Assembly (NCBI GenBank): GCA_964551435.1
Contig: CAZKBS010000001.1
Location: forward strand, 285,422-349,421
Length of the DNA: 64,000 bases
Source of the DNA: an uncultured Micavibrio sp.
GTDB lineage: Bacteria > Pseudomonadota > Alphaproteobacteria > Micavibrionales > UBA2020
Direction: 5' to 3'
The notes below the pieces were generated by a model that searched no databases, was not told the DNA's origin, and saw only the letters and a list, made by a program, of their open reading frames with translations. Shown here one piece after another: positions 17,316-62,642 of the stretch. How positions within the stretch are numbered: position 1 is the first letter of the stretch; every line of letters begins with the position of its first letter. The translations under genes and the position numbers were made by a program.

Positions 17316-18374
17316 TTATGTAGCGCGCTGCCAGCTGCGGACAATCCCCACCAGCTCCGCCACATGTTCGGGTGGCGTTTCCTTGATAACGCCATGACCA
17401 AGATTGAAAACGAAAGGACGGCCTTCGGCAGCAGCCAGAATGTCGAGTGCAGCGCGGCGCATGGTATCGCCACCTGCCAGAAGTTTTTCGGGGTCCAGAT
17501 TGCCCTGCAGGCACACATGGCGCGGCATGGATGCAATATCCGCCTGCGGATCAAGACCAAGTGCGGCAATGCCCGTTTCAGCCGCATAGGCCGTGTAATG
17601 CGCGCCTGCTTGACGTGGAAAGCCTATAACGGGCACATCGGGCGCCGCCGCGTGAACCTGATCGATAACCCGCTTTGTCGGGGCAATCACCCAGTCTTGG
17701 AAATGGGCATCGGGCACAAGGCCTGCCCAGCTATCGAAAAGCTGTACGGTATCGGCGCCATGACGGATTTGCGATATCAGATAGCGTGCGGTGACATCGG
17801 AAAGCTTTAGCAAAAATTCCTGAAAGCCTCTGCTATCTGCCAAGGCCATTTCTTTCGCGCGCGCAAAACTGCCGCCACCGCGGCCATGCAGCATATAACA
17901 GGCAATCGTCCACGGCGCACCTGCAAAACCGATAAGGGTTTTATCGGCAGGCAATTCACGCTTGAGGATATCAATCGTTCGATAAACAGGCGCCAGTCTG
18001 GATTCAAAACCGGCTGTGTCCAGCCTGTCGATATCGGAAAGTTTTTCAAGCGGCGGGAGCTGCGGGCCTTCGCCTTCAATGAATGTCAAACCCTGACCGA
18101 GCGCATGCGGAATAACCAGAATATCTGAAAACAGTATAGCGGCATCAAAGTCGTAACGCCGCAGTGGCTGGAGGGTGATTTCTGCCGCCATAGAGGGGTT
18201 ATAGCAAAGATTAAGAAAAGACCCCGCCTCTGCCCGCAGAGCGCGGTATTCGGGCAGATAACGGCCTGCCTGACGCATCAGCCACAAGGGTACGCGGGGC
18301 GTGATACGGCCCTGCAGCGTTTCCAGCATGGGTTTTTCTATAACTGTTGATATCATGGCGGCCTTGCTTTGCAT
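17316..18374 (-). CDS. hemE: uroporphyrinogen decarboxylase
   Basis: PLWLMRQAGRYLPEYR and ILFSDILV motifs. The start is either ATG 18374 or ATG 18356. Confidence 0.93.
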   Translation of the reverse strand: MQSKAAMISTVIEKPMLETLQGRITPRVPLWLMRQAGRYLPEYRALRAEAGSFLNLCYNPSMAAEITLQPLRRYDFDAAILFSDILVIPHALGQGLTFIEGEGPQLPPLEKLSDIDRLDTAGFESRLAPVYRTIDILKRELPADKTLIGFAGAPWTIACYMLHGRGGGSFARAKEMALADSRGFQEFLLKLSDVTARYLISQIRHGADTVQLFDSWAGLVPDAHFQDWVIAPTKRVIDQVHAAAPDVPVIGFPRQAGAHYTAYAAETGIAALGLDPQADIASMPRHVCLQGNLDPEKLLAGGDTMRRAALDILAAAEGRPFVFNLGHGVIKETPPEHVAELVGIVRSWQRAT

Positions 18375-18884
18375 GGTTCTTTATAAGCCATGCCTTTCGC
18401 CCATCCAATATTAAAGAAAGTATATATAAGAGAATTGTAGGAGTCGTAGGCGCGTGGATGAGGGGGATAACTTCAAACAACACTATTTTTCCACAGAGCC
18501 TGTCATGCGCAATCGTCGGTTTTTTTGAAAACTTTGTGCAAAAGCCAATTAAAAACAATAAATTCAAGATGAAACGGGCTTGTGAATAACGGGGATAATT
18601 GATTATTCCGGTAAATAAACTTATCCCCGCTTTTCTATTCCGGAGTCCATGCGTGGATGGGCGGACTCATAATTCCGCAGCTTATCCCCCAAAGGCATCA
18701 CGGATCAGAAAGCCCCGCGTCTATGCACGCAGTTTTCCACACAGCTATACACAAACCATATTCCAAGCAGTCGATATCTGCATATCGCGCTCAATCTTGA
18801 GCGGTCGTTACGGCTTTTCTTCGTGCGCGAATGCCGATAGGATAAACGCTGAGCAAACGTCATCCTGAATTGGGGTAAGGGTAG
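18375..18884. other. candidate chromosomal replication origin (oriC), hemE-linked
   Basis: AT-rich 510-bp gap next to hemE. Three exact TTWTNCACA DnaA boxes: 18487-18495, 18733-18741 and 18581-18589 (reverse). Four TTATCCCC cores and two GCGTGGATG copies are also present. Origin-proximal markers (rho, mnmE, mnmG, rsmG, parAB, parS) flank it. Confidence 0.6.
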
Positions 18885-19505
18885 ATGAGCGAAGACTGGC
18901 AAAAAATAGATGTGGAGCGCACGGCGCGTATTCTGTCGGAAGTAAATCCGCATCTGGAACCTGTGCCGTTCAGCATGGAAAGCACTACTATCCGCAGCCA
19001 GCGGCTTTCGTTTTACCGTGACTATGAATTTCTGGAACTGACGGATCTTTCCGCTGTACCGGCGGTGCGCAAATATGCGATTTACAAGCCGGGCGATGTG
19101 AACGTCATCAACTGGACGAACCAGACGATATACGAAACCAACGAGAAAGCGCCGATCAATATCAATGCGCGTAACGTTGTCGAATACGTGAAGTTTTTCT
19201 TTGGCTACGTGCGCGGCCGTCATGGCCGTTTCATGATTATCGAGACAATTGACGATATCCGCTGGCAAGTTGAACCGCCGCTGCAGGGTCGCAAGGTCAT
19301 GCAGCAGATGCTGGAGCCCGTGACGCTGCTGAGCGAGGATGATGACGGGACATTCAATCTGGAAGCCTTCATGGTTTTCAAAGACTCGCTTTTCAAAACC
19401 CGCGTGCATGTGAAGCCTGACGGCCTTGTCAGCATGTCGGAGGAAGAATTGAAAATCGAAGGCATGCCTATTCTTCAGGACTCGGCGCTTCAGCACTATG
19501 CCTGA
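18885..19505 (+). CDS. hypothetical protein (206 aa), first gene right of the putative origin
   Basis: ATG preceded by GGGGTAAGGG. The amino-acid composition is balanced. There is no signal peptide and no motif I recognise. GC is lower than in the backbone. Confidence 0.6.
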   Translation: MSEDWQKIDVERTARILSEVNPHLEPVPFSMESTTIRSQRLSFYRDYEFLELTDLSAVPAVRKYAIYKPGDVNVINWTNQTIYETNEKAPININARNVVEYVKFFFGYVRGRHGRFMIIETIDDIRWQVEPPLQGRKVMQQMLEPVTLLSEDDDGTFNLEAFMVFKDSLFKTRVHVKPDGLVSMSEEELKIEGMPILQDSALQHYA

Positions 19506-19554
19506 GAAAACCCACGGATAGCACATCCTTTACGCCCATTTTGCGGTACCTGCC

Positions 19555-20616
19555 ATGCGCTGCCCTGCCCCATTTTTCGAACCGCCGCAGGCGCTGGAAC
19601 ATAAACCGTCTTTTGCGGATATACCCTTATCCCTGTGCAAAAAAATAGCCGATATCTGCGGCAGTCCGGTTATGGATGGCGCTATTTTGCATGGCAGCCT
19701 TTCGGCGACAGCGGGTTTTGTGCTGACGCTACAGAATGGTCAAAAAATATTTGCCAAGGGCAGCCACCCGCAAGAAATGTCGCACGGCACGCTCCATATC
19801 CGCAGCGAAGCCTATGCGTATCAGGTATTGCCCGCGCTTAAATCCGTCGCGCCGCGTTTTATCGGACTTGTCAGTGATGATAACGAAGACGGCTGGACGC
19901 TGGGTCTTTGGGATTATATCGCGCGCGATAAAGCAAACGCCCCCGATCTTGATATTGCAGATGTGATGCGAAAGCTCGTTAGCGTACACAAGAGCGAGAT
20001 ACCCGTGACGTTCACGACAAGTGCCGCAGCGCATAACTATTTGTCGCTTTTTCTGCGTGACGAAAAAAAATGGCAGCGTGTGCGCGGCGAGGCGAAAATA
20101 AAAGACAAGCTGTTGTCGGTTTTCGAAGATGAACAGGCGCACCTGTGGCTTGATCGGCAGCTGGATAGTTTATGTGCGATGCAAGCTGCAGTGCCGGCGT
20201 TTGATTTTCAAACCGGATTGATACACGGCGATTTGCGTCTGGATAATATTTTGGCAGCGCTGACGCATACATATATTGTCGATTGGCCGAACGCCTGCCG
20301 CGGGCCCGTCGTTTTTGATGTGCTGATGCTTTCGGTGCATCTGGAATCTTTGGGCTATGGGCGGGCAGAGGATTTTATTTCTTTATATGACGCCGCCGCA
20401 GGCACGGCTTTTGCACAAAAGAATAACCAAGAGCTGATGATCATGGCCGCCAGCATGGCCGGATTTTTTGCCGATCAGGTCTACAGGGCAGTGCCCGAAA
20501 AAATGCCGCGACTGCGCTGGATGCAAAAATCCTTATTTTTCGGGCTGTTAAGCCTGATGAGTCGTCATGGGCGAATCGAATCACCCCCGCGTATGTCAGG
20601 GCTTTTGCGTATTTGA
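19555..20616 (+). CDS. APH/choline-kinase-fold phosphotransferase (protein-kinase-like superfamily)
   Basis: Catalytic loop LIHGDLRLDNIL, metal-binding YIVDWPNA, and an N-lobe Lys in KIFAKG. It lies 49 nt downstream of the preceding ORF. Confidence 0.7.
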   Translation: MRCPAPFFEPPQALEHKPSFADIPLSLCKKIADICGSPVMDGAILHGSLSATAGFVLTLQNGQKIFAKGSHPQEMSHGTLHIRSEAYAYQVLPALKSVAPRFIGLVSDDNEDGWTLGLWDYIARDKANAPDLDIADVMRKLVSVHKSEIPVTFTTSAAAHNYLSLFLRDEKKWQRVRGEAKIKDKLLSVFEDEQAHLWLDRQLDSLCAMQAAVPAFDFQTGLIHGDLRLDNILAALTHTYIVDWPNACRGPVVFDVLMLSVHLESLGYGRAEDFISLYDAAAGTAFAQKNNQELMIMAASMAGFFADQVYRAVPEKMPRLRWMQKSLFFGLLSLMSRHGRIESPPRMSGLLRI

Positions 20617-20895
20617 CACGCGATTATTTGAACCATTGTTCATTGCAGCATGGCAAAAAATGCCGATTTAATTACATAACTATAATATTTTGCTGCTTTT
20701 TTGCCTGAAAACACCGGATGTTAACCACCGCTACCGCATGATGAAGGGGCTAGGGGAAAAGCTGCCTGCTTCGGATAACAAAGATCGGACTGAACAGGAT
20801 ACCGGCACCAGAGGACTACAAAGGTATCTAAGGCCACAAGGCTGACACGACCGCGAACTTTGACTTCGGCACAGGCAAGGGAAAAAGGTGTGTAA

Positions 20896-21933
20896 ATGGC
20901 AAACGACGTTGATAAAGACAGCGACTTCAAACTGCCCAAGCCAGACAAGCAGCGTTTTCGCAGTAGTGCGGGCCGCCTCCGCAATGGCAAACACCTGTCC
21001 CACCGCGCCAGCATGGACTGGCGTTTGGACCAGCGCACCGTTTGCGACAAGCCGGACATCGCCGCTACCATCGTCTCCGTTGAAGAGCTAAAAGAAATCC
21101 TGCTGCAAAGCCGCACCGCCGAGCAGTTGATGACGGGCGATGCCGCCGCAAATCTGCATATTGTTTATGATGCGCAAGTACCTGCATCGCAATTTTACCC
21201 GCCACGCGAAGGCCGCGGTGCCACGATCACCCTGAACCCGTTCCGCCCACGCGGCGATTTGCTGAACATGCTGGCGCGCGAACTGCGCCGCAGCTGGCAA
21301 CATTTCCACGGCGCGCTGGTCAACCCGATGGATTACGAGCCGGACGAAGCTATTCTGGTCAACCGCGCGCAGCAGGCCGATGTTTTGATGGTTTCCATCA
21401 AGGTGGCGTGGGAGCTGAAACTGGGCGGCAACAGCGAAGCCTGGGATTATCTGGTCGGATCGCCGATGTCGGATGTGAGCCGTACGTTCGAAATCAAGGC
21501 GCAAACCGATTTCCGCAGCCTGAACAATGGCGAAGCGGCGCGTGCGGCCTATGATAAATTCTTCGAAGACAGCCGCACCAAGATCCATGACAAGCGCATC
21601 ATTCACCAAATGCTGCTGGATGAAGCGGGCTACATGAAATCGCAAAAAGAGCGCAGCCGTGTATCCATGGATTTGTTCAAGCGTCTGGGCGAACTGCCGT
21701 CGGGCCGCAACTATCTGTCGATGAACGCAACACGCACGCCGATGGATACCTGCTATGCGACGGTTGAAGACCGCTCCAATGCGAATTTCCTGTGGTTCAT
21801 CAAGTTCGAACGCAGCTTTCAGGAAAAAGAGCGGCAGATGATCGAAGAGTCGGTCAAGCTGTCCGCCGAAGTTGTCGACTTCGCACGCTTTGCCAGCGCG
21901 GCGCGCCGCCCGGGCAATGCTGAGCAAGCCTGA
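20896..21933 (+). CDS. hypothetical protein, zincin-like-domain paralog family, degenerate motif (RELRR)
   Basis: 345 aa, colinear with ORFs 21945, 58571 and 59620. Shared blocks are ...LHIVYD..., LNMLARELRRSWQ (21277-21291 = RELRR), QADVLMVSIKVAWEL and AARAAYDKFF. Confidence 0.65.
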   Translation: MANDVDKDSDFKLPKPDKQRFRSSAGRLRNGKHLSHRASMDWRLDQRTVCDKPDIAATIVSVEELKEILLQSRTAEQLMTGDAAANLHIVYDAQVPASQFYPPREGRGATITLNPFRPRGDLLNMLARELRRSWQHFHGALVNPMDYEPDEAILVNRAQQADVLMVSIKVAWELKLGGNSEAWDYLVGSPMSDVSRTFEIKAQTDFRSLNNGEAARAAYDKFFEDSRTKIHDKRIIHQMLLDEAGYMKSQKERSRVSMDLFKRLGELPSGRNYLSMNATRTPMDTCYATVEDRSNANFLWFIKFERSFQEKERQMIEESVKLSAEVVDFARFASAARRPGNAEQA

Positions 21934-21944
21934 AAGGACGCGCG

Positions 21945-22853
21945 ATGACGGCGGATATACCACAGCCGCCACGCATCGTTTTTCCGCTGTCGTATTTCAC
22001 CCAGAATGATGTACTGGAAATAAAAATTCCAGCGACCGCGCAGCCGCAGGCAAAAATATTTGCCGATGCCATGCAGCGTGTGTGCGGTTTTCTTTTGCAA
22101 TCACCATCGGGCCGTGCGCTGATACGCGCGGCGCTTTTGCGTGGCGTTCATATCGGCCTTGATCCGCTTTTGGAGCCGCAAACAAGTTTTTATTATCCGC
22201 TGCAAAAACGTCTGGATCTGGGTTATCAACCCGCGGCGCTGCAAACATCGCAAAAGGGTATCAGTCTTTATCTGGCCGGTATGACGGGGGGGTTGCGCCG
22301 GATATGGCAGCAAAGCCGTGCGCTGGCGCCGGATACGGCGCTGCGGCCCGAAGATTTCTTGCGCTATTGCCGTACGTTCGAAGCGGATGTTTGCGCCGTC
22401 ACGCATCTTGTCGCGTGGGAGCTGCGCGCGGCAGGCCCGTGTTTTTTCTGGCGTCACCTGCTGGCAGGCGTGGATGGCGATGTCGCGACATCTTTTGCGC
22501 GTGCGGCAAGCGCGCACCCGCGCCACCAGTTCGACGGTACCGCGCTGCGTGCGGCGTTTCTGGAGTGGTTTCAGGTGGCTGAGAGGGTGGATGCCTGCGA
22601 CCATCTGGCGCTCGAGATGATGGATATGGCGCTTTTGGGTCTGCGCGGCAGCGCCGGCGAGATTGGCCGCGCCAAGCTGGATGGCAACCGCATGAACATG
22701 CTCGGCGCTTTGCCGCAGGGTGGGAATTATTTGACCGGTATGCGTTTCCGCGCGGCACCGATGCGGCGCGGGTGCGATCCGTTTAACCGGACGCATCTAA
22801 AGCATATCCAGCACGACATCACCTATCTATCTGAAAACCAAAACAGTTTTTGA
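21945..22853 (+). CDS. hypothetical protein, zincin-like-domain paralog family, degenerate motif (GGLRR)
   Basis: 302 aa, starting 11 nt after the previous stop. Blocks are SPSGRALIRAALLRGVHIGLD, MTGGLRRIWQQ (22287-22301), EADVCAVTHLVAWEL, ALRAAFLEWF and the shared LG.LP.G.NYL. Confidence 0.6.
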   Translation: MTADIPQPPRIVFPLSYFTQNDVLEIKIPATAQPQAKIFADAMQRVCGFLLQSPSGRALIRAALLRGVHIGLDPLLEPQTSFYYPLQKRLDLGYQPAALQTSQKGISLYLAGMTGGLRRIWQQSRALAPDTALRPEDFLRYCRTFEADVCAVTHLVAWELRAAGPCFFWRHLLAGVDGDVATSFARAASAHPRHQFDGTALRAAFLEWFQVAERVDACDHLALEMMDMALLGLRGSAGEIGRAKLDGNRMNMLGALPQGGNYLTGMRFRAAPMRRGCDPFNRTHLKHIQHDITYLSENQNSF

Positions 22854-22859
22854 TATTTT

Positions 22860-22902
22860 TTGACATATCGCCTGAATCGCCGTAGTGTTAACGCATCGTT
22901 AA
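22860..22902 (+). promoter_or_regulatory. sigma70-type promoter overlapped by a TTAA-N7-TTAA (CtrA-type) box
   Basis: TTGACA 22860-22865, a 17-nt spacer, then TAGTGT 22883-22888. TTAAcgcatcgTTAA lies at 22888-22902, which is also the inverted repeat TGTTAAC-N5-GTTAACA. This is 25 nt upstream of ATG 22927. Confidence 0.45.
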
Positions 22903-22926
22903 CAATTCAAATTTTTGGGGTTCGTC

Positions 22927-23112
22927 ATGGCGAATGAGAACACGTTTAAAGAGTCCAAGCTGAAATCTGCCTTTCAAGGCGTTGCCGGCGGACTTTATGC
23001 CGCGGTTGGCGAAGACCCGAACATGGGCATGCAAACGGCGGGTTATATTTATGACCGCGCGAAGCTGGCAAAAGATCAGGTTGTCCAGAGTTTCAAAACC
23101 AAATTTGCCTGA
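22927..23112 (+). CDS. small hypothetical protein (61 aa)
   Basis: MANENTFKESKLKSAFQGVAGGLYAAVGEDPNMGMQTAGYIYDRAKLAKDQVVQSFKTKFA. It has a GGGG Shine-Dalgarno-like element and its own strong promoter. No family recognised. Confidence 0.5.
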   Translation: MANENTFKESKLKSAFQGVAGGLYAAVGEDPNMGMQTAGYIYDRAKLAKDQVVQSFKTKFA

Positions 23113-23169
23113 TAATGTTTCCCCGCGAAGGCGGGCAGCAAAAAAGTTCTTTGTAAAGTTGAAGCCTGC

Positions 23170-23853
23170 TTACTGCATATCGAGTAAGTGGGCTTCGCCT
23201 CTTTTGGCGAGCCACTCACGCGTCATCAGCATGGCGTTTTCGCGGTCGCGACGGCTGAGGCGCGAATACACTGAATCGCGGTCGCGACGCGCGGCTTCTT
23301 TTTCCGGGCCATCAGGATAGCTAATCACCGCCAGCTGCAGCCACATCAGCGCTTTGATGCTGTCGTGTGCTGTGCCGTTACCGGTAAAGTTCATGACTCC
23401 GACGTGGTGCTGCGCAAGCGCGCGGCCTTGTTCAGCGCAGAGAATCAGCAAATCATAGGCTTTTTTGGGGTCTTTTTCGACGCCCTGCCCAAGGTTGTAC
23501 ATGATGCCGAGGATTTCTTTGGCGCCTGTATGGCCGCCGTTGGCGAGCAGTTCAAGGTGCGGCAGCGCACGTTCGTACTGGCCGTCTTTATAGAGCTTCA
23601 ACACAGCTTCGTATGTCAGCGCGACGGGTTTGCCGTCTTCGTCGGTTTCTTCTTCTTCGGCGACCTCGCCGTCTTTGTCTTCTTCTTTCAAAAGAAGACC
23701 TTTCCGGATGCTTTGATATTCGGATACGTCCGGCATGGTGTCGCTGCGCGTACCGATTTCAAAAACGGATTCCTGCGCCTGCGCAGGCAGCGATATTGCT
23801 GCCATGAGGGCGAGAGCGGAAACAGTCAGGAGCGGCATCAGAAGGCGGGTCAT
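23170..23853 (-). CDS. secreted Sel1-repeat (TPR-like) protein
   Basis: Start at ATG 23853 gives a signal peptide (MTRLLMPLLTVSALALMAAISLPAQA). An acidic tract (EEDKDGEVAEEEETDEDG) follows, then Sel1-type repeats (AKEILGIMYNLGQGVEKDPKKAYDLLILCAEQG..AQHHVGVM). Confidence 0.8.
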   Translation of the reverse strand: MTRLLMPLLTVSALALMAAISLPAQAQESVFEIGTRSDTMPDVSEYQSIRKGLLLKEEDKDGEVAEEEETDEDGKPVALTYEAVLKLYKDGQYERALPHLELLANGGHTGAKEILGIMYNLGQGVEKDPKKAYDLLILCAEQGRALAQHHVGVMNFTGNGTAHDSIKALMWLQLAVISYPDGPEKEAARRDRDSVYSRLSRRDRENAMLMTREWLAKRGEAHLLDMQ

Positions 23854-23925
23854 GACGGAAAAATCCTTGTTCAAATCGCTCTTACTATTATAAGGCCTTT
23901 TGCTCGAAAGGCAAAAGTCCCGCAA

Positions 23926-58570: not shown

Positions 58571-59623
58571 ATGGCAGATAACGATTCACCTTCGGATTCG
58601 GACAAAATGGCCGCTCTGCGCAAGGCCGTGCTGGCTGAGGTGCGCCTGACGCCGCTGGGCCGCGCCCTGCTCCGCGAACTGGGCCGTTTGCGGGTGAAGA
58701 TCGTTTTTACGCCCGATGTGCCGGGCGGCGAAGACGGCAACAAACTTTTCGGTCTGTTCGATCCGCGCATCAATACATTGTTTGTCGATGCAAACGCGCC
58801 GCGCGCGGCGCAGCTCCATTTCTTCGCGCATGAAGCGCGCCACGCCCTGCAAATGGAGCAGGGCCGCAAGCTCACGGATGCGGGCAAAAACACATCTGTC
58901 GATTATTTCTCCCCCGCTGCGCAGCTATATCTGATGCGTCTGCGCGAACTGGACGCCGATACCTTCGCCGTCTATTTCGTCGCGCAGCATGACATGCACA
59001 CGCGCAGCAATCATTTCGCGCATATGGCCAAACGTGGTATTCTGTTTGGCAGAGACCCCTATGACCGCGCCACTCTCTATGAGGCGTTCCAGAAAAAATG
59101 GGAAGAGCTCGGCAAGCCGCGCGACCTGACGGCCCCCACGCGCGCCGCGGCCGATGCGTTTTTACAAAACACCGCGCTTTTAAATACCTATAATAACTTC
59201 GCCCTGCATGTGTGGGAAAATACGCTGCTGCAGGGTCTGAAGGATAATGCGCAAAAACCCGAAAGCAGTTTTGCGCGCGGCTTTCGCGCGATTATACGCG
59301 GCGCGCAAAACGCACAGACGGCGAAGAAAACAAAAACCGCCGGTGTGCGCGATATTTTTGCGCAGCATGCGGCAGCCTACAAAAAGATTTTGCCGCGCAG
59401 CCGTGTGCCGGATTATACGGGCGGCCAAAGCGCAGCAGCCTTTACCCGTCATGTATGCGACAAGCCCAAAGACGCCAATCCGTGGCATACCACGAATTTC
59501 CGCTATGAACGCGCGATGGACAGCTTTAGCCGCGCTATCGCCCATTACGCCGCGTTGCCGGAGGCTGCGAACAGCAATGCGCCGCCCCCCGCCGCACACA
59601 AAAAACGGGGGCCGCGCGCATGA
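58571..59623 (+). CDS. hypothetical protein, zincin-like-domain paralog family, intact HExxH (HEARH)
   Basis: 350 aa with TPLGRALLRELGRLRVKIVFTPD...TLFVDAN...LHFFAHEARHALQ (HEARH = 58829-58843), ELDADTF and AAADAFLQ. The C-terminus is basic (HKKRGPRA). Confidence 0.65.
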   Translation: MADNDSPSDSDKMAALRKAVLAEVRLTPLGRALLRELGRLRVKIVFTPDVPGGEDGNKLFGLFDPRINTLFVDANAPRAAQLHFFAHEARHALQMEQGRKLTDAGKNTSVDYFSPAAQLYLMRLRELDADTFAVYFVAQHDMHTRSNHFAHMAKRGILFGRDPYDRATLYEAFQKKWEELGKPRDLTAPTRAAADAFLQNTALLNTYNNFALHVWENTLLQGLKDNAQKPESSFARGFRAIIRGAQNAQTAKKTKTAGVRDIFAQHAAAYKKILPRSRVPDYTGGQSAAAFTRHVCDKPKDANPWHTTNFRYERAMDSFSRAIAHYAALPEAANSNAPPPAAHKKRGPRA

Positions 59624-60744
59624 GCAGCCCTGTGAACACATCGGTTTCCCTGCGCGCGCGTTTGCGTGAAACAATTGTGCAATTTTGTCATGAACGCCTG
59701 CACGGCCGTGACAGCGACCGCCGTCAGCAGGCGATGGATATGCTCTATACGACGCCGGAGGGCAAAGCGCTTCTGGATACCGCCGCGCAATATAATGTGC
59801 CGATCCGCTTTATGCGGGCGGGCAAGCTGGGCGCGCTTGGCTCCCTTTCCAAAAACCCCGAAGACGCCACCGTCGGTGTGTCGGTTGCCAATACCGGCAA
59901 TTTGCCGCAGATGGTGCTGACGCTGTATCATGAACTTCGGCATCTCAAACAACAGGAAGAACAGGGCGATATTAAAAACGGCGTGTTTATGGGGCTCAAG
60001 AATACACGGCGCTCCCATATGCTTTCGCTGATGCAGGAGGCCGACGCGTTTACGAGCGAGGCCATGTTCGCCCTCGATAGAAACGCGGCCGGCGATAAAA
60101 CGTATTTAAACAGCGTGATGAACCCCAGACACGACCTCGCCCGCGTGACCGCGCAGTATATCAAAACAGCGCCTGTGGCCTATGAGCAGGACAGGGATGC
60201 TTTCCGCCGCGGGCTTTTCACGCATATCATGCTTGAAGGTCTGGCGGGGTATTCTGCTTCTTATTTCCTCGGATATGCTACCGCCTTCCGCAAGGCCGCG
60301 ACTAAGGACGAATTCACAGCGCTGGTGGGCGATTTGCGTGAACTGTGCAAACCTGATAATACCGGCGAACTGGCGTCAGCTTACGGGACGTCTTATGTCG
60401 AAAAAATGTCGATGACGGCGCTCGCCCGCGTTTTCTTCAAAACCTTGCCGATAGCCGAACAGCAGGCGCTGGAGCTGGTCGATAAAAGCGTGCGCAGTAT
60501 CGGCAAAATGACCGAAGAGCAATATCAGAAAACCCGCGAAGCCGCGACAGCCGCGCTGATTTCCGTTTATCAGACCGACCCGCGCGATCTTGCATATTCA
60601 AACGAAGCCGATACACTGCGCCGCGCGTTATCCGCCGCGGCTGCGGACAGCGCGCCGGATCTGCGCGCAGCCTTTGCCAAGGTCGCCGCGCGTAAAATGC
60701 AGCCGCCTGCGGGGTTTGCGCCGCGCGCGCCGCGTCCGCTCTAG
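59620..60744 (+). CDS. hypothetical protein, zincin-like-domain paralog family, intact HExxH (HELRH)
   Basis: ATGA overlap with the previous gene. 374 aa with TPEGKALLDTAAQYNVPIRF...VGVSVANTG...LTLYHELRHLKQQ (HELRH = 59929-59943), QEADAFTSEAMF and DRDAFRRGLF. Confidence 0.65.
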   Translation: MSSPVNTSVSLRARLRETIVQFCHERLHGRDSDRRQQAMDMLYTTPEGKALLDTAAQYNVPIRFMRAGKLGALGSLSKNPEDATVGVSVANTGNLPQMVLTLYHELRHLKQQEEQGDIKNGVFMGLKNTRRSHMLSLMQEADAFTSEAMFALDRNAAGDKTYLNSVMNPRHDLARVTAQYIKTAPVAYEQDRDAFRRGLFTHIMLEGLAGYSASYFLGYATAFRKAATKDEFTALVGDLRELCKPDNTGELASAYGTSYVEKMSMTALARVFFKTLPIAEQQALELVDKSVRSIGKMTEEQYQKTREAATAALISVYQTDPRDLAYSNEADTLRRALSAAAADSAPDLRAAFAKVAARKMQPPAGFAPRAPRPL

Positions 60745-62114: not shown

Positions 62115-62642
62115 TCAGTTCGGACGGCGGATATTGGCGCGTATAGGGCAGCAGGTGATGGTGATGCTGCGGGGCAGCCCTTGGGTGATGGTATCGATCT
62201 CCTGCCGCAGCTGCGCTTTTTGCGCATCATGCCGCGCGGCTTCAGCTGCGCCCTGTACAGGCACAATCTGCATCGCAAGGCTGTCATAGCCCAGTTGCAC
62301 GGCCAGCTCACGCACACTCTGCCCCTGATTGTTGGTCAGATCCGGATTGGCGCCGCGTTTCAGCAGCAGCGATACGCATTCGACCGCGCACCAGCCGACG
62401 GCCACGTGCAGCGCCGTCCAGCCGCTGTCGTCGCGCGCATTGACAATGTCGGGCAGCAGGGTGATATGGCTTTCCAGTGCCGTGCGCAGCGCCTCCGCAT
62501 CACCGCAGCTGCAGGCTTCGAGCACTTCGGTGCAGGCGCTGGCCAGCTCGCTCTTGCGCATGCCGCCGACACCCTTGACGGCGGCCTTGGGGGCGCGGCG
62601 GGGGCTGAATGATTCGCGGGCGTGCGGGGTTAATTGCGGCAT
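62115..62642 (-). CDS. ankyrin-repeat protein (175 aa)
   Basis: DDSGWTALHVAVGWCAVECVSLLLKRGANPDLTNNQGQSVRELAVQLGYDSLA forms ankyrin repeats. The C-terminus is basic (RANIRRPN). Confidence 0.7.
   Translation of the reverse strand: MPQLTPHARESFSPRRAPKAAVKGVGGMRKSELASACTEVLEACSCGDAEALRTALESHITLLPDIVNARDDSGWTALHVAVGWCAVECVSLLLKRGANPDLTNNQGQSVRELAVQLGYDSLAMQIVPVQGAAEAARHDAQKAQLRQEIDTITQGLPRSITITCCPIRANIRRPN

Follow-up and report, generated by a model that had tools for sequence, protein, structure and literature searches.

A conserved pair of putative pseudo-zincins, W1 and W2, beside the predicted replication origin of Micavibrio-like Alphaproteobacteria

What does a zincin-like protein do once the histidines of its metal site are gone, and why would a bacterial lineage keep two such proteins side by side? 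The question is raised by a 64,000-nt stretch of DNA from an uncultured Micavibrio sp. (GenBank assembly GCA_964551435.1, contig CAZKBS010000001.1, positions 285,422 to 349,421), hereafter called the window. It carries two tandem genes, W1 and W2, separated by 11 nt, and further downstream a second tandem pair, W3 and W4, in which the start of W4 overlaps the stop codon of W3 by 4 nt (Table 1). An initial annotation, made from the letters of the window, had described all four products as zincin-like paralogs, with an HExxH motif in W3 and W4 and none in W1 and W2; its coordinates for the open reading frames (ORFs) and motifs, and the 11-nt gap, proved exact. W1 and W2 belong to two subfamilies of the zincin-like family PF20573/DUF6782 that diverged from each other long ago. 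On balance, we favour the explanation that they form a non-catalytic pseudo-zincin heterodimer with an Arg-rich pocket, which works with the product of an upstream gene (u206) in a core cytoplasmic function, and that a kinase was added to this system in the clade of the window.

All four proteins score above the Pfam gathering threshold of PF20573/DUF6782 (27 bits), by which membership was defined, and they share the block order of this "putative metallopeptidase family": S/TPxGxALL, a sheet, an xxLRxxWQ helix and an R..(E)AD helix. The family name presumes a metallopeptidase, whereas W1 and W2 lack the HExxH histidines. In BLASTP, W1 and W2 were 29% identical over 224 residues (E 2e-17); pairwise comparison of W1/W3, W2/W4 and W3/W4 gave no significant similarity. 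A profile of 81 W1 orthologues aligned with a profile of 39 HExxH members, W3 and W4 included, over 238 columns with a probability of 99.9% (E 6e-35), which placed RELRR in the columns of HELRH and QQAD in those of EADA, and BLAST with W1 also reached the HExxH domains of two relatives, P0169 and P0187. The homology between W1/W2 and W3/W4 is therefore founded on the profiles and on these two matches, not on direct pairwise similarity, and it upholds the annotated paralogy of the four ORFs. The family is a small one: a profile of the four window proteins retrieved 661 representatives at E <= 0.001 (50% clustering, of 1.84 billion). Two of the blocks that had been listed as shared by both pairs, RAA(Y/F)xxWF and GxNYL, are indeed present in the consensus of the HExxH members, where most HExxH representatives have gaps, but they are weak or absent in W3 and W4 themselves.

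The fold had also been likened to DUF4157 (PF13699), a domain of contractile-injection-system cargo, and this resemblance did not survive a Pfam search, which gave PF20573/DUF6782 and no DUF4157 match, neither for the four window proteins (E <= 10) nor for eight multidomain relatives (E <= 0.001). The window proteins and DUF4157 share only a short HExxH-containing zincin-like domain as a general feature, and no contractile-injection genes were seen in any examined locus. Against Peptidase_M91, which has a cut-off of 25 bits, W4 reached 15.6, and against M78, with a cut-off of 22 bits, W3 reached 13.6, with no match to either for W1 and W2; the relative P0175 passes the thresholds of both Peptidase_M91 ("Effector protein") and M78. 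DUF6782 proteins had no match in NCBIfam, among the anti-phage defence models of PADLOC or among the phage families of PHROGs, W1 orthologues had none among solved structures searched by sequence, and a literature search found no publication mentioning DUF6782 or PF20573.

By their substitution pattern, W1 and W2 are genuine genes under strong purifying selection. The ratio of nonsynonymous (dN) to synonymous (dS) substitution rates, calculated against three relatives, was 0.07-0.13 for W1 and 0.11-0.17 for W2. Homologues of W1 numbered 546, the best 120 of them at 60-91% identity. The alternative that the two ORFs are non-coding was thus checked against a dN/dS of 0.07-0.17 and hundreds of homologues and can be set aside; two long ORFs in antisense orientation, at 21088-21972 and 22101-22796 on the minus strand, were without comparable coding support. 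A plasmid collection contained no relatives of W1 or W4, giving no sign of mobility.

The only invariant columns among the 39 HExxH members are H104, E105, H108 and E140 (W4 numbering), the last lying 32 residues past the second His in the R..EADA helix; in another count, over family representatives, this downstream Glu was found in 88% of the HExxH members. An invariant H/E/H together with a downstream Glu matches the pattern of a gluzincin-type site, and the Glu of the R..EADA helix is the probable third zinc ligand. The aligned columns confirm that W3 (HEARH) and W4 (HELRH) carry HExxH, and that both histidines are absent from W1 (RELRR) and W2 (GGLRR), with the motif Glu absent from W2 as well. 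W2 retains the downstream Glu (FEAD) but without the two histidines. From this alignment, neither W1 nor W2 would be able to bind zinc as their HExxH relatives presumably do.

The initial annotation spoke of lost histidines. They are absent, but the decay that this wording implies does not fit the conservation of the R-E-L-R-R replacement, nor the finding that about two thirds of the sampled family members have no HExxH histidines (49 of the best 150 representatives have HExxH and 41 have RExxR, the remainder being other His-less variants). Proteins of the W1 type were defined by the C-terminal signature N..FLWFIKFE (n = 305). His occurs in none of them at the first zinc-ligand column and in seven at the second; position 1 of the motif is R in 75%, Q in 15% and K in 4%, E follows in 92%, the middle R is found in 98%, and position 5 is R in 88%. 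The position of the third ligand is variable and never Glu, with the A and D of the block retained. All of the 120 closest W1 homologues (best 120 of 546) show R-E-(L/I/V)-R-(R, rarely H), and W2 orthologues conserve [GA][GAS]LR[RK]xW[QHL]. The W1-type signature was found in 66 of the 150 representatives, none of which has HExxH, and the middle Arg and the WQ of the motif helix are common to the whole family, HExxH members included. Since the replacement is itself conserved, the histidines have not simply decayed.

A specific and conserved motif of this kind, as opposed to random drift, would also be expected if W1-type proteins were still enzymes, the Glu and two or three arginines performing metal-independent chemistry, hydrolytic or other, on an anionic or phosphorylated substrate, with a guanidinium pair in place of the +2 charge of zinc and W2 as non-catalytic partner. 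The positions that replace His are R, K or Q in more than 90% of W1-type proteins, a kinase gene is adjacent, and HExxH scaffolds are known to carry out chemistry other than proteolysis (PMC12636437). We nevertheless regard such an enzyme as doubtful. The motif Glu and/or the arginines are missing from 27 of the 66 W1-type representatives (KAARL, QSVRQ, GSLRQ and others), and the lineage of loci L036 and L037, in which the motif has degenerated to KAARL, still keeps the gene trio described below. W2 lacks the motif Glu altogether. The residues that are invariant in distant W1-type proteins (NRxQxAD, DFR, WF, GxNYL and RxNANFLWFxxFE, the last within the FLWFIKFE region) all lie away from the motif, and the C-terminal signature DRSNANFLWFIKFERSF is invariant over W1 orthologues and distant W1-type proteins alike. 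With the Glu and arginines gone in some lineages and the invariant residues elsewhere, the site is not universally needed for function. On the explanation that we favour, W1 and W2 would be pseudo-metallopeptidases acting by binding and not by cleavage, in which the peptide-binding cleft of zincins is probably kept and a cationic R-E-x-R-R patch occupies the former metal site. Homology, loss of the ligands, purifying selection and conservation in more than 300 proteins all hold for W1-W2 as pseudo-metallopeptidases; inactivity itself is predicted from sequence.

Table 1. Features of the window discussed in the text (positions within the 64,000-nt stretch)
Feature	Coordinates	Strand	Description
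W1	20896-21933	+	345 aa; His-less DUF6782 protein, W1-type, R-E-L-R-R; PF20573 E 1.8e-28, 99.9 bits
W2	21945-22853	+	302 aa; His-less and Glu-less DUF6782 protein, W2-type; PF20573 E 3.4e-19, 69.5 bits
W3	58571-59623	+	350 aa; DUF6782 protein with intact HExxH; PF20573 E 3.2e-12, 46.7 bits
W4	59620-60744	+	374 aa; DUF6782 protein with intact HELRH and QEAD; PF20573 E 8.3e-13, 48.6 bits
RELRR	21277-21291	+	W1 residues 128-132, HExxH columns
QQAD	21370-21381	+	W1, columns of the E-A-D block; Q160 stands where the putative third zinc ligand is expected
DRSNANFLWFIKFERSF	21769-21819	+	W1-type-specific C-terminal signature; start of a long helix, outside the Pfam match (residues 62-274)
GGLRR	22287-22301	+	W2 residues 115-119, HExxH columns
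HEARH	58829-58843	+	W3, HExxH
HELRH	59929-59943	+	W4, HExxH
QEAD	60034-60045	+	W4
hemE-u206 spacer	18375-18884	.	510 bp; probable oriC
u206	18885-19505	+	encodes a 206-aa protein; the conserved trio starts with this gene
APH-family kinase-like gene	19555-20616	+	Pfam APH E 1.6e-13; between u206 and W1; dN/dS 0.25
Sel1-repeat protein	23170-23925	-	Pfam Sel1 E 2.5e-11; hydrophobic, signal-peptide-like N-terminus

The AlphaFold2 model of W1 had a predicted local distance difference test score (pLDDT) of 79.6 overall and above 90 in the core (residues 60-200), where three short strands are followed by the motif helix (119-137) and a long second helix (149-176); this order of elements fits a minimal gluzincin core. 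In Foldseek against the PDB, the highest probabilities were those of SPRTN (0.97) and the mini-zincin 3e11 (0.85), with no E-value below 0.2, and further matches to MATCAP, MMP-11, PprI and CapP were likewise not significant, so the fold evidence is consistent with a zincin, though weak. In the minimal zincins and the effector or regulator peptidases of gluzincin type (NleD-like M91, ImmA/IrrE of M78, SprT/SPRTN and Acel_2062, 3e11), a short catalytic core combines a small sheet with an HExxH helix and a second helix that bears the third ligand. Compared with these, W1-type and W2-type proteins have no metal ligands and possess additional conserved C-terminal blocks (DFR..NNG, WF and GxNYL), to which the FLWFIKFE region is added in the W1 type only. 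Near the other end of W1, residues 27-50 (20974-21045) are near-invariant among orthologues (RLRxGK..HLSHRASLDWRLDQ.RVC), and residues 36-49 have a pLDDT below 50; this segment may fold only upon binding a partner or the protein's own cleft.

Pairing recurs in the family. Eight sampled relatives carry two DUF6782 domains per chain; HExxH is present in both domains of all eight, and EADA in both domains of seven. In most of these proteins each domain is closest to its own chain partner, indicating repeated independent duplications. A correspondence of W3 to the first and W4 to the second domain of the fused proteins was considered and rejected, as the fused domains are usually each other's closest relatives. 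The two-domain chains and the two tandem gene pairs suggest a dimer or pseudo-dimer as the working form of the fold, and W1 and W2 probably form a heterodimer that mirrors the two-domain HExxH relatives. In one relative, P0169 (2563 aa), two DUF6782 domains share a single chain with Sel1 repeats and an APH domain, and Sel1 repeats are also fused to two DUF6782 domains in P0187. By Rosetta-stone reasoning, P0169 hints at cooperation of DUF6782 pairs with the kinase and with Sel1 proteins.

The gene neighbourhood of W1 and W2 was compared among 25 related loci (L001-L025) from metagenome-assembled genomes (MAGs) labelled Micavibrio, "Rhodospirillaceae" or "Alphaproteobacteria"; two of the loci are labelled Bdellovibrionales because the NCBI taxonomy files Micavibrio there. 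The order is fixed in these loci: hemE on the minus strand, a spacer of about 500 bp, u206, the APH kinase gene, W1 and W2, followed by a small ORF, the Sel1 gene and prmA (both on the minus strand) and a thiolase gene. At a depth of about 54% identity for hemE and about 56% for prmA, identity is about 81% for u206, 66% for W1, 48% for W2 and 40% for the APH kinase, which makes W1 and u206, by sequence identity, as conserved as housekeeping genes. Four more distant lineages (L031 and L035-L038) show hemE on the minus strand, a homologue of u206 of about 200 aa, a W1-type gene and a W2-type gene; the kinase gene, present in L001-L025, is absent from all of them. In L031 the identities are 37% for W1, 44% for u206 and 47% for hemE. 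The order of hemE, a spacer rich in DnaA boxes and the trio recurs in all sufficiently covered related loci but one, and wherever coverage extends beyond W1 the next gene is a W2 orthologue, L014 excepted. As judged from these loci, u206, the W1-type gene and the W2-type gene constitute a fixed three-gene module across Micavibrio-like Alphaproteobacteria, and the strong conservation and fixed synteny argue for a conserved module of W1/W2 and u206, not for decaying genes.

The first member of the module may hold more interest than the DUF6782 pair itself. Its 393 homologues are all named "hypothetical", no family was found for u206 in Pfam, NCBIfam or PADLOC, matches to PHROGs were at chance level only, and 53 homologues scanned singly against Pfam gave scattered chance matches only. 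The protein is acidic (isoelectric point 5.0), its dN/dS is 0.03-0.08, and its AlphaFold2 model is confident (pLDDT 88, predicted template modelling score 0.84) with no Foldseek match in the PDB. Structures of MccB came up as candidate relatives when solved structures were searched by sequence and were dismissed as chance-level matches. A conserved motif, FFF.YVRGRHGRF, was noted in u206. No transmembrane or signal segments were found in u206, W1 or W2. W1 and W2 probably act with the acidic and extremely conserved u206 in a core cytoplasmic process, and the APH-type kinase, recruited in the clade of the window, may supply or modify an anionic (phosphorylated) ligand.

The spacer upstream of the trio has the features of an origin. 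Near-consensus DnaA boxes (TTATCCACA, at most one mismatch) number ten in the window, three of them inside the 510-bp spacer, which also shows several GGGGATAA/TTATCCCC words. Origins of Alphaproteobacteria are classically bounded by hemE, and those of Caulobacter and Rickettsia are located between hemE and COG1806 (PMC1914354). In L035 and L038 the trio is flanked by hemE on one side and by a Kinase-PPPase gene (COG1806/DUF299) on the other, followed by maf, aroE, coaE, dnaQ and secB, so that the trio fills exactly that interval. The series from COG1806 to dnaQ is a classical surrounding of origins in Alphaproteobacteria. GC skew did not locate an origin within the window, and Rfam detected no RNA family over its whole length. 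The prediction that the trio adjoins the chromosomal replication origin is well supported by this context. The description of W1 and W2 as retained pseudoenzymes beside a probable origin is likewise borne out, by a dN/dS of 0.07-0.17, the fixed synteny and the DnaA-box-rich spacer.

A bolder proposal is one that we rate as rather doubtful: the trio would be a lineage-defining, origin-proximal machine of Micavibrio-like predators, built on a zincin scaffold in which paired arginines replace zinc and the Glu is kept. Such a site would either catalyse without a metal or serve as a dedicated receptor, its ligand being phosphorylated or acidic, and the machine might couple to replication control or to the predatory cell cycle. 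For the non-catalytic heterodimer with u206 as partner, which we favour, four points count on the other side. The heterodimer and the binding of u206 are drawn from gene order and from fused paralogues; W1, W2 and u206 themselves are not among the fused proteins. The motif Glu is kept in 92% of W1-type proteins, which could mean residual or new chemistry. In L014 (1376-2714, a short MAG contig), the place of W2 after W1 is taken by a gene resembling cytidylate kinase (cmk), an exception that could reflect rearrangement or misassembly. The Sel1 neighbour looks exported and W1 and W2 look cytoplasmic, so that the link to Sel1 suggested by the fusions may not apply.

Both HExxH proteins of the window retain H, E and H and the downstream acidic residue, which makes W3 and W4 plausible active peptidases. 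Their tandem is kept between tlyA and ivd in five metagenomic loci, where W3 is 44% and W4 60% identical at identities of 89% for dxs and 96% for ivd; dN of W3 and W4 exceeds the values of the flanking genes about tenfold, and dN/dS is 0.08-0.15 (0.12-0.15 for W3). They are a separate branch of DUF6782 that evolves faster and is presumably catalytic. Between W4 and its counterpart in L027 (6001-7122), dS was 0.83, compared with 0.21-0.35 for dxs, tlyA, W3 and ivd in the same genome pair, which suggests recombination or allele exchange at W4. An ankyrin-repeat protein (62115-62642, minus strand; Pfam Ank E 6e-9) is encoded near W3 and W4.

The initial annotation had proposed that W1 and W2 regulate, inhibit or bind the active pair. 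In its general form this would make them dead paralogues that regulate, inhibit, immunise against or scaffold W3 and W4, comparable to MPN-/MPN+ or alpha/beta-MPP. All four genes belong to one family and are present and intact in one genome, and partnerships of dead and active paralogues are well documented for metallopeptidases (PMC11266112). The genomic data lend the proposal no support, and we judge it improbable: W1/W2 lie 36 kb from W3/W4, nothing beyond family membership links the two pairs specifically, and W1/W2 are always linked to u206 instead. Moreover, each pair already has two paralogues of its own, and W1 keeps a housekeeping pace where dN of W3 and W4 is raised about tenfold, a sharp difference in rate that is unlike a co-evolving pair of regulator and target.

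Another reading takes the predatory lifestyle as its starting point. Micavibrio, an epibiotic predator, belongs to the group carrying the trio, and W1 and W2, perhaps with u206, could be exported factors for predation or host interaction, that is, binding modules derived from effector-type metalloproteases. The organism of the window is Micavibrio-like, the HExxH relative P0175 reaches the Peptidase_M91 "Effector protein" and M78 thresholds, and giant relatives (2563 and 2804 aa, Sel1 plus two DUF6782 domains) resemble secreted multidomain toxins. Sel1 and ankyrin genes, members of eukaryote-like repeat families often found in host- or prey-associated bacteria, lie near the two pairs. We give this reading little credence for W1 and W2, as they and u206 have no signal peptide or transmembrane segment, and housekeeping-level conservation with fixed origin-proximal synteny is unusual for effectors, which typically diversify; the description suits W3 and W4 better.

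To our knowledge, bacterial pseudo-metallopeptidases have barely been described. Pseudo-metallopeptidases as such are already known, the reviewed cases including ADAM pseudoproteases, FtsHi, and alpha-MPP and the bc1 core proteins (PMC11266112). Like W1 and W2, they are homologues of zinc peptidases with substituted ligands that are retained under selection, and they are often partners in hetero-oligomers and sometimes parts of core machines. In contrast to those cases, which are nearly all eukaryotic and usually paired with an active paralogue, W1 and W2 are bacterial and paired with each other, and they have a conserved Arg-for-His motif and a partner without a fold match in the PDB. What is new here is that two subfamilies without the histidines occur in bacteria, that they are paired mutually and with u206, and that they occupy the origin boundary across a lineage. 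The name "putative metallopeptidase", given to these proteins in databases (at NCBI, "DUF6782 family putative metallopeptidase"), is almost certainly wrong for the W1 and W2 types, which comprise hundreds of sequences and some two thirds of the family members sampled. The putative pseudo-zincin pair and u206 sit at the hemE/origin boundary, the most conserved landmark of alphaproteobacterial chromosomes, and the Arg-for-His replacement offers a clean, testable case of a metal site that was turned to binding or, possibly, to catalysis without a metal. The anatomy of the W1/W2 module is solid and rather striking; its function could prove mundane.

Smaller features of the locus concern its expression and surroundings. 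The APH kinase gene and W1 are separated by a 279-nt non-coding gap (20617-20895) with an AT-rich stretch at about 20650-20700, no Rfam match and no consensus promoter on the plus strand, and W1-W2 may be transcribed apart from u206 and the kinase gene; a scan of 18300-23300 for consensus promoters and terminators gave nothing above chance. Between the stop codon of W2 and the small ORF lies the palindrome TTAACGCATCGTTAA (22888-22902, plus strand), which fits the CtrA-box pattern TTAA-N7-TTAA and is the sole match to it in the 64-kb window, 0.38 being expected by chance. The small ORF itself (22915-23112, 65 aa) is 72-91% conserved in the seven closest relatives and partially so (43-50%) in two distant loci. 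Finally, in locus L026 (Ga0226835_1000001, a metagenomic contig of 2.56 Mb) the encoded proteins are 95-100% identical to those of the window from dxs through mgtE, and L026 presumably represents an almost entire genome from the species of the window.

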